Shown: positions 14,051 to 63,903 of the stretch, in pieces
How the letters are laid out: every line of letters starts with the position of its first letter
Position numbering within the stretch: position 1 is the stretch's first letter
Source of the DNA: Eledone cirrhosa
Lineage: Eukaryota
Direction of reading: 5' to 3'
Assembly (NCBI GenBank): GCA_964016885.1
Contig: OZ024755.1
Location: forward strand, 34,720,001 to 34,784,000
Length of the DNA stretch: 64,000 nt
Made by a program: the position numbers and the translations under genes
The notes under the pieces: model-generated
What the model was told of the DNA's origin: nothing
What the model saw: the letters and a program-made list of their open reading frames with translations, nothing else
Databases searched by the model: none

Positions 14051-14413
14051 GTAGGAGGTGAGTTTTATTGTAGTACAATAAAGCAATGCAGATATCGGAT
14101 AAGAAGCACTCTACAGTTTGTAGGAATGGAGTATACATAATATATAAGATCAAAAGATGGTTAAATGAGTTCCATGTATTTTATTATGCGCATTTTAAAA
14201 ACAAATATCATCATGCAATAACATTTGTGTTTTCATCAGATAAAATAGGAGGACATGATATGAAGGTTAAAAAACACTTGTGGATAGTGCAGTTTTAAAT
14301 CAACATATCATTTATTTTATCTGATGAAAACACAAATGTTATTGCATGATGATATTTGTTTTTGAAATGCGCATAATAAAATACATGGAACTCATTTAAC
14401 CATCTTTTGATCT

Positions 14414-44979: not shown

Positions 44980-45040
44980 TTCATTCTGACGACTGAAGAC
45001 AGACACAACATTTGTCTTCAAGAAACCACTGGTAAATGAA
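44980..45040 (+). ncRNA. Type I HHR
   Basis: ttcatt-CTGACGA-ctgaagacaga..tttgtcttcaa-GAAA-ccactgg-TA-aatgaa; GUA site. Confidence 0.88.
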
Positions 45041-50231: not shown

Positions 50232-50775
50232 GATAAATCTACCAAGAGTTTACGGTAGTGTCCAATCCGTATGAAGAACTCAATGTATTCCGGATATCAT
50301 GGAAAGAAGAGATGCAATGAAAAATCACTTTCGGTGAAAGATAAACGGAATACAGAGTCAAGATAAAATATTAAAAAAATAATGAATAAACAATGAAACA
50401 GTTCCTTATATTAAACAAAAAAAGTTCATTATTTAACGATCGTTTCTAGGATATATATGTGTTAGAATTGGCATGCATATTCAACAGCTCTATGTACAAA
50501 ATTATACAAAATTATACAAACTATCAAGATTAAATATACATACCAAACACACATATATATGCCGTCTTCAGAAGACGGCATATATGTGTGTTTGGTATGT
50601 ATATTTAATCTTGATAGTTTGTATAATTTTGTATAATTTTGTACATAGATCTGTTGAATATGCATGCCAATTCTAACACATATATATCCTAGAAACGATC
50701 GTTAAATAATGAACTTTTTTTGTTTAATATAAGGAACTGTTTCATTGTTTATTCATTATTTTTTTAATATTTTAT
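50229..50775. mobile_element. PLE end: ~205-bp hairpin with 1-nt loop (centre 50570) plus tail
   Basis: gccgtcttc-a-gaagacggc centre; minus strand CTGAAGA...GAAA-cgatcg-TT. Confidence 0.78.
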
Positions 50776-50789
50776 ATATATATATCATC

Positions 50790-51819
50790 ATCATCATCAT
50801 CATCACCGTTTTACGTCCGTTCTTCCACGCTAGCATGGGTTAGACGGGTTGTCCTGTTGTGGGCAGTGTCTGGTCGGCTGACCATGCCTTGCTCATACAG
50901 GAACTGATCTGGCTTGATTTCTACAGCTGGATGCCCTTCCTAACACCAACCTCATTTACAGTGAGTGCTGGGTGCTTTTTCGTGGCGCCTACACGTCCAC
51001 TTTACAGTGTGGGCTGGGTGCTTTTTTGCCGTGGCACCTCCACGACCACCTTGCGGTGGGGGGGGGGGGGCATATTGTTTATATGCTTCAGCATGTACCC
51101 ATGGGAGGTCGGGTACCCTGTATTACTGCGTGACACCAGAAGTCACGGTCGTGTGTCATTGACTTTGAGAGGTGTAGTTGGGTAAGGTCGGCTTTTATCA
51201 CCTCATCCCAAGTCATCTTGGGTCTCCCCACTCCGCGGTTTCCATCAACTTCTAGTGCTCTGCACCTTTTTATGCAGCTGTCATCCTTCATACGCATCAC
51301 ATGTCCATACCAGCGTAACCGCCTCTCCTGCACGCAGCATTTGATTCCTCTTATGCTCAGTCTCTCTCTCAATTCATTTATGCTTTGTCGTTCACGTATA
51401 TTACTGTTACACATCCATCGGAGCATGCAGGCTTCGTTTCTCTCTAATCTACGTAAGTCTTCCACCTTCAGCGCCCAGGTCTCACTACCATGCAACATCG
51501 CTGTTCGGATACACGCATCATACAGTCTGCCTTTCATTCTGAGGGAGAAGCCTTTTGCAGCTAGCAGTGGTAGTAGTTCCCTAAACTTCTTCCATCCCGT
51601 TCTTACCCTAGTTATTGTACTTTCTGAGCACCCACCTCCGTTGCTAATTCGGTCACCTAGGTAGCAGAAGCTGTCTACTGTTTCTACAGGGCCCTCCCAG
51701 AGATTGGTGGTACTTGTTTCCTGTGGCTGTTTGCTTGCTGTTTCAGCACAGCTGCTGCATGTGAATCCTACATTCTTAATTAAGCTTCCTGAGATCCCGC
51801 TACATCTCTTGTGTACCAT
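50790..51819 (-). mobile_element. RTE LINE 3' part (243-aa open segment) with 3' UTR
   Basis: [38 protein letters not shown]. Confidence 0.93.
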
Positions 51820-51907
51820 ATATTTATATATATATATATATATTTATATAAAAATGATACAGATACAATATAGACACAAACACATATATATAGTTTACAT
51901 AATTTAC

Positions 51908-52040
<133 letters not shown>

Positions 52041-52076
52041 AATATATATTTATATATATATAAATATATATATATA

Positions 52077-52237
<161 letters not shown>

Positions 52238-52297
52238 TATATATAAATATATAAATATAAATATATATATATAAATTTATATATATAAAGATGTATA

Positions 52298-52331
<34 letters not shown>

Positions 52332-52356
52332 AAAATATGTATAAATATATATATAA

Positions 52357-52407
<51 letters not shown>

Positions 52408-52664
52408 TATATAAATATATATATAAATATAAGTATGCATGTATACGTACATACATATATGTATACAGACGTACAGTAGCATGCACATATATATATATAT
52501 ATATACATATGCATACAGGTACACATACATATATGCACGTATCAGTTTAGCGGCGCTTATTATAACGTCGCTTTGTTCGTTTGTAAACAAACTGAGCAGC
52601 CTGAATTTATGCCATACGGTGTTAAGGCAACCACGTCACCTTTTTGTTCAACACTGACACAGGA

Positions 52665-52707
52665 ACGATGTACTAGTTTCAAGCTTGTTAGCTATCATCA
52701 GCACCGT
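52665..52707 (-). ncRNA. Type I HHR (inverted retrozyme copy)
   Basis: Reverse complement of acggtg-CTGATGA-tagctaacaagctt-GAAA-ctag-TA-catcgt. Confidence 0.9.
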
Positions 52708-53316
52708 TTACCCATCTGCCAGATAGTTGAACGTTCGAAAGTATATACTTTCCTTATGAAAATTAACGGCTGAGCAGCCTAATTTGCATATTGAGTGAGT
52801 TAAATCGGTCAGGCATACCGAAAACGATAAATTGAAACAAAATGAAAACGAAATTTCATTTCTCACTCTTAGTATGGCACATCGTTCCTGTGTCAGTGTT
52901 GAACAAAAAGGTGACGTGGTTGCCTTAACACCGTATGGCATAAATTCAGGCTGTTCAGTTTGTTTACAAACGAACAAAGCGACGTTATAATAAGCGCCGC
53001 TAAACTGATACGTGCATATATGTATGTGTACCTGTATGCATATGTATATATATATGTATATATATATATATATATGTGCATGCTACTGTACGTCTGTATA
53101 CATATATGTATGTACGTATACATGCATACTTACATTTAAGTAAGTGCCATACTAAGAGTGAGAAATGAAATTTCGTTTTCATTTTGTTTCAATTTATCGT
53201 TTTCGGTATGCCTGACCGATTTAACTCACTCAATATGCAAATTAGGCTGCTCAGCCGTTAATTTTCATAAGGAAAGTATATACTTTAGAACGTTCAACTA
53301 TCTGGCAGATGGGTAA

Positions 53317-53359
53317 ACGGTGCTGATGATAGCTAACAAGCTTGAAACTAGTACATCGT
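53317..53359 (+). ncRNA. Type I HHR, array unit
   Basis: acggtg-CTGATGA-tagctaacaagctt-GAAA-ctag-TA-catcgt; 6-bp stem I, GUA site. Confidence 0.92.
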
Positions 53360-53790
53360 TCCTGTGTCAGTGTTGAACAAAAAGGTGACGTGGTTGCCTT
53401 AACACCGTATGGCATAAATTCAGGCTGTTCAGTTTGTTTACAAACGAACAAAGCGACGTTATAATAAGCGCCGCTAAACTGATACGTGCATATATGTATG
53501 TGTACCTGTATGCATATGTATATATATATGTATATATATATATATATATGTGCATGCTACTGTACGTCTGTATACATATATGTATGTACGTATACATGCA
53601 TACTTACATTTAAGTAAGTGCCATACTAAGAGTGAGAAATGAAATTTCGTTTTCATTTTGTTTCAATTTATCGTTTTCGGTATGCCTGACCGATTTAACT
53701 CACTCAATATGCAAATTAGGCTGCTCAGCCGTTAATTTTCATAAGGAAAGTATATACTTTCGAACGTTCAACTATCTGGCAGATGGGTAA

Positions 53791-53833
53791 ACGGTGCTGA
53801 TGATAGCTAACAAGCTTGAAACTAGTACATCGT
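53791..53833 (+). ncRNA. Type I HHR, array unit
   Basis: Identical to 53317-53359. Confidence 0.92.
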
Positions 53834-54258
53834 TCCTGTGTCAGTGTTGAACAAAAAGGTGACGTGGTTGCCTTAACACCGTATGGCATAAATTCAGGCT
53901 GTTCAGTTTGTTTACAAACGAACAAAGCGACGTTATAATAAGCGCCGCTAAACTGATACGTGCATATATGTATGTGTACGTGTATGCATATGTATATGTA
54001 TATATATATATATATATGTGCATGCTACTGTACGTCTGTATACATATATGTATGTACGTATACATGCATACTTACATTTAAGTAAGTGCCATACTAAGAG
54101 TGAGAAATGAAATTTCGTTTTCATTTTGTTTCAATTTATCGTTTTCGGTATGCCTGACCGATTTAACTCACTCAATATGCAAATTAGGCTGCTCAGCCGT
54201 TAATTTTCATAAGGAAAGTATATACTTTCGAACGTTCAACTATCTGGCAGATGGGTAA

Positions 54259-54301
54259 ACGGTGCTGATGATAGCTAACAAGCTTGAAACTAGTACATCG
54301 T
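54259..54301 (+). ncRNA. Type I HHR, array unit
   Basis: Identical to 53317-53359. Confidence 0.92.
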
Positions 54302-54732
54302 TCCTGTGTCAGTGTTGAACAAAAAGGTGACGTGGTTGCCTTAACACCGTATGGCATAAATTCAGGCTGTTCAGTTTGTTTACAAACGAACAAAGCGACG
54401 TTATAATAAGCGCCGCTAAACTGATACGTGCATATATGTATGTGTACGTGTATGCATATGTATATATATATGTATATATATATATATATATGTGCATGCT
54501 ACTGTACGTCTGTATACATATATGTATGTACGTATACATGCATACTTACATTTAAGTAAGTGCCATACTAAGAGTGAGAAATGAAATTTCGTTTTCATTT
54601 TGTTTCAATTTATCGTTTTCGGTATGCCTGACCGATTTAACTCACTCAATATGCAAATTAGGCTGCTCAGCCGTTAATTTTCATAAGGAAAGTATATACT
54701 TTCGAACGTTCAACTATCTGGCAGATGGGTAA

Positions 54733-54775
54733 ACGGTGCTGATGATAGCTAACAAGCTTGAAACTAGTACATCGT
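54733..54775 (+). ncRNA. Type I HHR, array unit
   Basis: Identical to 53317-53359. Confidence 0.92.
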
Positions 54776-55139
54776 TCCTGTGTCAGTGTTGAACAAAAAG
54801 GTGACGTGGTTGCCTTAACACCGTATGGCATAAATTCAGGCTGTTCAGTTTGTTTACAAACGAACAAAGCGACGTTATAATAAGCGCCGCTAAACTGATA
54901 CGTGCATATATGTATGTGTACCTGTATGCATATGTATATATATATGTATATATATATATATATATATGTGCATGCTACTGTACGTCTGTATACATATATG
55001 TATGTACGTATACATGCATACTTACATTTAAGTAAGTGCCACACTAAGAGTGAGAAATGAAATTTCGTTTTCATTTTGTTTCAATTTATATATAAATATA
55101 TATAAATATATATATAAATATATATAAATATAGATATAA

Positions 55140-55171
<32 letters not shown>

Positions 55172-55235
55172 ATATAAATATATATATATTTATATATATA
55201 TATATATATAAATATATATATAAATATATATATAA

Positions 55236-55270
<35 letters not shown>

Positions 55271-55421
55271 AATATAAATATATATATATATAAATATATA
55301 TAAATATATATATATAAATATACATAAATATATATATATATAAATATATATAAATACATATATATATAAATATATATAAATATATAAATATATATATATA
55401 TAAATATATATAAATATAAAT

Positions 55422-55469
<48 letters not shown>

Positions 55470-55639
55470 ATATATACGTTATCAATGTGTGACAAGGATT
55501 GCCCCTTAAATTATAGGTACAACTCATTTTTGCACTAAGTGCATGAAAGCAATGTGAAATGAAGTGGCTTGCTCATAGATAAGATGGGTCTGGAAATGGA
55601 ACTCATTCTACACACACGTTAATCTCGAGTGAAATCAGG

Positions 55640-55825
55640 TGTCACCACAGTAAATAAGGTACTCAGTACATTAGTAAAGTGAAAACAATGAAATTTAATA
55701 TAGAAATGGTTTCTACAGGACTAGAACTGTTTCATTTGTATGAAATCATCAGGGCATTCCTGATGATTTCTTAGAAATGAAACAGTTCTAGTCCTGTAGA
55801 AACCATTTCTATATTAAAATTCATT
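55640..55825. mobile_element. Short PLE-type palindrome (55687-55825) folded just 5' of an HHR core, plus tail
   Basis: tcatcagg-gcatt-cctgatga centre; CTGATGA-tttcttagaaat-GAAA; stem I lost. Confidence 0.65.
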
Positions 55826-62088: not shown

Positions 62089-62475
62089 TATATATATCAT
62101 CATCATCATCACCATCATTTTTACGTCCGCTTTTCCCTGCTTGCAAGGGTGGGACGGGAACTGATTCTGGCTTGATTTCTACAGCTGGATGCCCTTCCTA
62201 ACACCAACCTCATTTATAGTGAGTGCTGGGTGCTTTTTTGCCGTGGCACCTCCACGACCACTTTGCAGTGGAATGATAGGGACCCCAGTCCCTATCATCT
62301 CATTTCTACAGCTGAGTAAACTGGAGCAACGTGAAATAAAGTGTCTTGCTCAAGGAAACAACACATCACCCGGTCTGAGAATTGAACTCACAACCTTTCG
62401 ATTGCAAGGCTAATGCTCTAACCACTAAGCTATATATATATATATATGCCGAAGTAGAATTTTAATATTCATTTT

Positions 62476-62988: not shown

Positions 62989-63404
62989 TGTGTATATATA
63001 TATATATATGTTTATATATCATCATCATTTTATGTCCACTTTTCCCTGCCTGCAAGGGTGGGATGGGAACTGATTCTGGCTTCATTTCTACAGCTGGATG
63101 CCCTTTACAGTGAGTGCTGTGTGCTTTTTTTCTGCGGCACCTACACATCCACTTTACAGGGTGGGCTCGGTGCTTTCTTGCCGTGGCACCCCCACAACCA
63201 CTTTACAGTGGAATGATAGGGACTCCGGACCCCAGTCCCTATCATCTCATTTCTACAGCTGAGTAAACTGGAGCAATGTGAAATAATGTGTCTTGCTCAA
63301 GTAAACAACACATCACCCGGCCTGAGAATTGAACTCACAACCTTTCGATTGCAAGCCCAATGCTCTAACCACCAAGCCATGCGCCTTCACTATATATATA
63401 TATA

Positions 63405-63519
63405 ATTTATTAAAATAACAGATTAAAGTTTAAGCAAAGAATCGCTGCTTTCACCCTTAACGGGATCGTTAAGGGTGAAAGCAGCGATTCTTTGCTTAAA
63501 CTTTAATCTGTTATTTTAA

Positions 63520-63524
<5 letters not shown>
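63405..63524. mobile_element. Perfect 58-bp-arm palindrome from the 949-999 HHR family
   Basis: Arms 63405-63462 / 63467-63524 in (TA)n. Confidence 0.75.
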
Positions 63525-63559
<35 letters not shown>

Positions 63560-63903
63560 AATATGACGCGTTTCGCACCTTGCCGACAGACAACCTTTCC
63601 CCCACCCCGGAAAAAACCCCCAATTGATGGATCTGAATCCGAAATATATAGGGACAATTAAATCTCTCCCAAGGTAACTCTCTCTCGTGTTCTTATTTTT
63701 ATTTTATCCTTTATACTCTTTCCTTCATTCTTCTACACGTCTTATACACGCCACGCATCTCAACGTACACCCACTTACATCTCCCTCTCCACCACCGGAT
63801 CTTGTTACCCGGAGATTTACCCATTTGCATTGTCGAGGCTTCCAAACGACTTAAAGATATTTACCTATTATTCCACAATGCTTCAAGCAAACTTCAATAC
63901 TCT

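Follow-up and report, generated by a model that had tools for sequence, protein, structure and literature searches.

Does an array of hammerhead units that begins at a predicted self-cleavage site preserve a trace of the ribozyme at work in the living animal? The question is raised by a locus in a 64,000-nt stretch of Eledone cirrhosa DNA (the whole stretch is called the window below), where a forward array starts against an inverted copy of the same repeat. A start at the cut, if borne out as a cleavage product, would be genomic proof that hammerhead cutting in vivo defines the ends of retro-insertions; the data from the family say otherwise. They bear on the role of hammerheads in Penelope-like elements (PLEs) and in animal retrozymes.

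At the window locus a 474-bp non-coding hammerhead tandem repeat is inserted head to head. A scan of the window reported a tandem array at 52879–55089 with a period of 474 and 4.7 copies, and the parts of the locus are as follows.

51818..52431, no strand: left (TA)n flank, likely target site
52424..52880, minus strand: inverted arm, unit 265–474 then 1–259 (blastn of the unit against the window, alignment, motif scan)
52671/52670, minus strand: predicted cut of the one, intact hammerhead of the inverted arm, core at 52701 (motif scan)
52879..52880, no strand: head-to-head junction, AC, a 2-nt microhomology compatible with both arms (forward positions –1 and +1)
52880..55089, plus strand: forward arm, four full units (474, 474, 468 and 474 bp) and a fifth stopping at unit 318
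53315..53361, plus strand: type I hammerhead motif 1, core at 53323, predicted cut 53353/53354 (motif scan)
53789..53835, plus strand: hammerhead motif 2, core at 53797, predicted cut 53827/53828 (motif scan)
54257..54303, plus strand: hammerhead motif 3, core at 54265, predicted cut 54295/54296 (motif scan)
54731..54777, plus strand: hammerhead motif 4, core at 54739, predicted cut 54769/54770 (motif scan)
55031..55089, plus strand: 59-bp 'tail' (unit 260–318) ending the forward arm, the inverted-arm end being without it (alignment)
55087..55476, no strand: right (TA)n flank, likely target site

The preliminary description put the start of the forward array at 52880 and the following predicted 5' end of a cleavage product 474 bp further on, at 53354, and noted an AC microhomology to the inverted copy. 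Both statements hold. The 11-mer that follows the cut matches the plus strand of the window five times (52880, 53354, 53828, 54296 and 54770) and the minus strand once (52670), in agreement with the array period; an intact hammerhead core precedes the last four plus-strand matches, and inverted-arm sequence precedes the one at 52880. As the two bases of the microhomology fit either arm, the forward arm may start at –1, +1 or +2, so that the further claim of a start exactly at the cleavage site survives in part: the cut is among the possible starts, but it is only one of three readings. The cut itself is a prediction from motif anatomy, relative to which every start is numbered here, and we take it, by hammerhead numbering, to follow the GUA triplet, which places it between 53353 and 53354. 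The inverted arm points its 3' end to the left, at unit 259, and the right-hand 3' end lies at unit 318. No target-site duplication is discernible between the two (TA)n flanks of the locus, and no ORF of at least 180 aa with normal composition was found in it.

In the motif stem I has 6 bp, stem II has 4 bp, and stem III has 2 bp and a palindromic loop. This is the canonical metazoan hammerhead architecture, given in passages of PMC4209133 as a helix I of 6 bp, a helix II of 4 bp and a helix III of 1–2 bp with a palindromic loop. With at least two consecutive units bearing a type I hammerhead as the minimum, the locus has four consecutive cores on the plus strand and one on the minus strand. 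Throughout the family the core is intact in 252 of 302 ungapped hammerhead copies (141 haplotypes), and the ten pairs of stems I and II are paired in 92–99% of copies, with a G-U/A-U exchange (199 and 83 copies) at one of them. Common variation is confined to four tolerated columns, namely outside stem I, at the stem I exchange, at core position N7 and in loop II, which argues that the motif was conserved in the source elements; such hammerheads may process or circularise transcripts. Generic tools gave little. At the Rfam gathering score the array has no match, the sole match being tRNA-like and elsewhere in the window; the HH9 model matches the motif weakly (18.5 bits, E 0.5), and miRNA matches to the array at E≤5 were rejected as driven by the microsatellite. 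Minimum free energy folding (z –0.59) gives no support by itself, its minimum-energy form being slightly unlike the hammerhead, and a two-strand fold consists mostly of stem II palindrome pairing and says nothing on a dimeric hammerhead.

The locus is one of very many. In the genome (3.0 Gb, 1,796 contigs) the 20-mer that follows the cut occurs 15,796 times without mismatch, and its reversed control not once; the first 100 of these matches fall into 56 loci, which extrapolates to about 9,000 loci, and copies are scattered across all large contigs. The unit is thus short (474 bp), low in GC (35%), non-coding, tandem and dispersed in high copy, with a TA-rich microsatellite inside it at about unit 129–254. 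The repeat is a very abundant hammerhead-ribozyme tandem family, and Penelope-like retrotransposons are likely what spread it.

A family of this size allows the start in the window to be compared with the starts of other copies, and a plot of breakpoints over genomic copies had been set beforehand as the test of the cleavage claim. In the 56 loci, which were chosen regardless of their 5' ends, 114 blocks span +3..+20 (nine overlapping loci were dropped here and in the array-variant analysis below); 65 of them reach –216 or further, and 49 start within –215..+3, the part of the unit scored in this set; all sets together cover starts up to +10, short of +11..+128 and of the microsatellite part at about 129–254. 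The 49 starts are distributed evenly (chi-square p 0.54, KS p 0.41), a single one falling at –1..+2; an even spread in other copies was the outcome that the preliminary description had set as its own refutation. A mild cluster of starts was seen at about –183 to –167, near the 318 end, with 10 of the 49 in one 22-nt bin (L031–L086), the overall test not being significant.

The surroundings of the cut were also sampled directly, with a pattern that forced three mismatches at –10..–8, left 16 positions free and was anchored at +10. Of its 193 matches 100 were listed and fetched; removal of two palindromic duplicates left 98 distinct ones, and removal of 16 small same-strand indels left 82 junctions, 75 inverted and 7 with flank among the matches listed. 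Their starts number 3, 1, 3, 2, 6, 5 and 3 at –7 to –1 and 4, 6, 2, 7, 7, 3, 3, 3, 11 and 13 at +1 to +10, again among the matches listed. Positions –1, +1 and +2 hold 13 of these 82 versus 45 at 12 other positions, +9 and +10 being left out as edge positions of the anchor (fold 1.16, 95% CI 0.57–2.18, p 0.62). In the same listed matches nine microhomology intervals touch +1, in the range of the neighbours from –7 to +8 (3–12), and microhomology of at least 2 nt is present at 18 of the 75 inverted junctions. A recurrent fold-back junction that joins an inverted start at +10 to a forward start at –1 through a 3-nt microhomology (L093, L097, L109 and L110) is a sequence-driven hot spot adjoining the cut.

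A third comparison used matched single-site patterns over the whole genome. Raw matches numbered 31 for the cut, 35 for +5 and 19 for –4. The respective anchors are about equally frequent in the fetched copies (145, 149 and 142), with a triple-mismatch chance of 0.36–0.39. Once same-strand rows had been dropped (7, 4 and 2, respectively), true inversion junctions made up 23 of 30 distinct matches at the cut, 26 of 30 at +5 (30 of the 35 were examined) and 17 of 19 at –4, for a fold of 1.07 (CI 0.62–1.8); one of the seven rows dropped at the cut (L102) resembles a flank junction, which makes the first count 23–24, and this set and the preceding one overlap in some loci. Divided by 0.39, that count amounts to about 60 junctions starting at the cut genome-wide, equal to the background prediction, and the window holds one of them. 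Taken alone, such a coincidence has a chance of about 3/474 in each arm, but the family has thousands of loci. No pile-up of 5' breakpoints at the cleavage site was found, and the cut-site start of the forward arm in the window is likely due to chance.

The 3' ends behave quite differently. In the fetched loci, picked by sequence near the hammerhead and not by their 3' ends, there are 323 distinct 3' ends, 110 at unit 259 and 74 at unit 318; by class, 185 fall within 240–265, 101 within 305–325 and 37 elsewhere. Two fixed 3' ends hence delimit an optional 59-bp tail, and the window locus has one of each. Where a locus has one end per strand, 47 of 73 pair one end of each class, 10 pair two short ones and none pairs two long ones. 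TA-rich DNA follows 233 of 286 ends, a count taken without a shuffled control, as expected of (TA)n targets. The window shows a partial tandem next to an inverted copy truncated at its 5' end, and 79 head-to-head loci were counted among those fetched. In 16 of these 79 a rare variant is common to both arms, as compared with 1.8 (maximum 5) in 200 shuffles of arms between loci, so the two arms of a locus mostly share a source.

This anatomy is familiar from PLEs. According to passages of Craig et al. 2021 (PMC8557442), a PLE insertion is a partial tandem beside which lies an inverted copy truncated at its 5' end; only one end carries a tail, of 30–40 bp, and the targets are (TA)n. Passages of Frangieh et al. 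2024 (PMC11167929) show a PLE protein that cuts both strands at AT-rich sites, extends them, and begins at two sites inside the RNA which delimit the tail. The hammerhead lies upstream of the reverse transcription start sites there as it does here, and in neither case is cleavage mirrored in the ends of inserts: in the same passages hammerhead mutants have no effect in vitro, and no RNA reads start or end at the cut. The twin 3' ends and the tail are the two-start 'tail' signature of Penelope-like elements. There are also differences. Our unit is without a reverse transcriptase or GIY-YIG ORF; its tail is 59 bp versus the published 30–40 bp; and its start sites lie 259 and 318 nt after the cut, versus about 85–92 nt in the anole PLE, a figure that we subtracted from coordinates in passages of PMC11167929.

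We are confident in reading the window locus as a head-to-head insertion from a family whose 3' ends are fixed at two positions and whose 5' ends scatter. A Penelope-like reverse transcriptase likely copied it from RNA that was either multimeric and uncleaved or circular, and chance likely put the start of its forward arm at the predicted cut. The element is a non-autonomous Penelope-like element or non-LTR retrozyme. In the mechanism that we propose, a PLE protein supplied in trans would cut both strands of a (TA)n target, with each free 3' end priming reverse transcription inside the RNA, at unit 259 or at unit 318. The two cDNAs would then traverse intact hammerheads, halt at arbitrary points and be joined through 0–6 nt of microhomology. 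The 5' ends of insertions are not set by the hammerhead. Two proposals of the preliminary description are upheld by the family: RNA-mediated insertion, by the precise twin 3' ends, the (TA)n flanks and the rare variants common to head-to-head arms, and copying from a multimeric transcript or by rolling circle, by the 106 of 114 unselected blocks that cross the whole core. Copying from 259 or 318 on a linear cleaved monomer would stop at +1, so such a monomer cannot be the usual template, which leaves uncleaved multimers or circles.

Which of the two was copied is a separate matter, and the circle, which is compatible with our main explanation, deserves attention. It supposes a covalently closed monomer, cleaved and ligated, with reverse transcription making several circuits from each end of the target, and would leave neither a run-off end nor a stop at the cut. 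In 19 arrays of at least three units we counted 305 private variants, 50 shared by a subset of units and 10 that are rare and present array-wide, and of nine two-armed loci with multiple units, six carry the rare variant common to both arms in all covering units. Passages of PMC7229834 show circular retrozyme RNAs in coral, mussel and axolotl, and circles are proposed as PLE templates in passages of PMC4209133. However, the same pattern would be expected if a young, uniform array were transcribed by read-through. Unit-specific variants common to both arms at L084, the sharing of variants by subsets of units in older arrays, and a variant common to units 3 and 4 of the window array that was found in only 3 of 232 copies all speak against a monomer circle. 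So does the absence of a ligation scar, only one indel having been found in –6..+6 among about 187 blocks. Among selected matches, small same-strand deletions make up 7 of 30 at the cut, compared with 4 of 30 and 2 of 19 at the control positions, but no enrichment is seen in 193 unselected blocks, and the idea of a ligation scar was rejected. We thus hold it possible, though short of an even chance, that such a circle was the template; the fuller statement, that a double-primed reaction of Penelope type rolling round a ligated monomer circle accounts for the locus-specific variants that both arms have in every unit, the two start sites and the lack of a stop at the cut, so that a missing end would be the trace of the ribozyme in the genome, we put forward with equal reserve. 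If true, it would link retrozyme circles directly to the target-primed integration of PLEs. A multi-unit variant pattern that recurs 4.35 kb apart at L012 and L013 (G000:C3:356477005-356484695) is a higher-order repeat in a long array, and it too counts against the circle.

Self-cleavage run-off fares worse. In R2 and HDV-like ribozyme retrotransposons the 5' end is defined by the ribozyme, whereas the inserts studied here start at the ribozyme site no more often than elsewhere. The preliminary description had read the window junction as a forward arm copied by a reverse transcriptase that reached an RNA 5' end made by the hammerhead, and as a genomic record of ribozyme activity in vivo. Three things are in its favour: the junction interval includes +1; the subfamilies have conserved core and stems, and vary commonly at tolerated columns alone; and junctions are slightly fewer upstream of the cut than downstream, with 23 in seven positions versus 35 in eight among the matches listed (p 0.30), or versus 59 in ten with the edge positions, and with the raw count at –4 (19) below those for the cut (31) and for +5 (35). 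Nevertheless, none of the three samples has a spike at the cut. A spike of hundreds to thousands would be expected if cleaved RNA were the main template, yet the excess over background is about 6–14% of cut-site junctions (fold 1.07–1.16), and at most about half of them at the upper bound. Even if all 31 raw matches are charged to cleavage, the upper bound is about 113 of 15,796 units (0.7%), a ceiling that agrees with the in vitro result in passages of PMC11167929 that cleavage is dispensable. As a claim about the family, run-off is largely refuted, and the cleavage-made 5' end and the in vivo record are not supported. Run-off may exist as a rare minority route, and the confidence intervals leave room for about a twofold enrichment at the cut, so the window junction could derive from cleaved RNA; we judge run-off an improbable source of such arrays, and for the window junction itself the chances are equally poor.

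An origin at the DNA level (unequal crossing-over or fold-back repair) or an assembly chimera is very improbable: the subset-shared variants of older arrays and the L012/L013 pattern do imply some DNA- or template-level rearrangement, but copies lie on all large contigs, the two fixed 3' ends pair non-randomly and private variants dominate. DNA-level exchange may have edited arrays later, while their birth is unexplained by it; the earlier exclusion of unequal crossing-over is too strong in view of the variant in units 3 and 4 of the window and of subset sharing elsewhere.

Setting the PLE reading beside metazoan non-LTR retrozymes brings out a second set of likenesses. According to passages of Cervera and de la Pena 2020 (PMC7229834) and of Li, Clavereau and Pollet (bioRxiv 10.64898/2026.07.22.740005), these too have a short non-coding tandem unit with one canonical type I hammerhead each, a GC content below 45% and thousands of dispersed copies, from monomers to multimers, in a PLE-rich genome. 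The unit here differs in its length (474 bp versus an average of about 300 bp and 350–390 bp in mussel) and in its internal microsatellite, and is known here from genomic DNA; head-to-head arms and twin 3' ends are absent from the passages of those two sources. Judged by sequence features, the family would qualify as a non-LTR retrozyme, and its insertions are built like those of a non-autonomous PLE. By combining in one retrozyme all the marks of PLE insertion (twin 3' ends, tail, inverted arm and (TA)n), it gives mechanistic support to a link so far argued from co-occurrence and phylogeny. We found no published account of the family, nor any comparable census of breakpoints; subscription papers, supplements and repeat databases were outside the scope of that search and may list the family.

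A coding PLE that carries the unit as its pLTR was not found in 30 GIY-YIG loci (150 of 10,597 candidates were scored), in 30 copies of one young PLE family or in eight longer stretches, a small sample. Two coding PLE families that stand beside or are fused to copies of the repeat (L036/L038/L035 and L068/L062) were considered as the autonomous partner and rejected, as they have unrelated 3' ends of their own. Both have the reverse transcriptase motif YRDDG and CxxC/CxH motifs round the endonuclease end, as described for Hydra clade PLEs in passages of PMC8557442; fragments of the two gave no Pfam match. At L068:1669 and L062:1952 the unit runs directly, without change of strand, into the young PLE family's coding region, possibly through template switching or nested insertion.

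Further features were noted elsewhere in the window. At 370–750 there is a head-to-head pair with a different hammerhead-like motif (cores at 528, minus strand, and 646, plus strand), found also at 14321 (plus strand); this motif sequence ends a young coding PLE family, whose copies are 99–100% identical over a 561-bp query. The 3' ends of a coding PLE family of the L035/L036 type, with a variant hammerhead-like core, lie at 946–1067 and 63391–63562, the second being a head-to-head pair. Hammerhead-like motifs of a third family, marked by a long stem II, are present at 44986 (plus strand) and 59917 (minus strand). A near-perfect inverted repeat at 50500–50645, centred near 50570, is possibly a head-to-head mini-insertion, and a tRNA-like head at 62375–62432 (minus strand, 30 bits) is likely a SINE. 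Finally, a small head-to-head pair at 55700–55810 has hammerhead-like cores at 55752 (minus strand) and 55760 (plus strand), with the junction just 5' of the cores.
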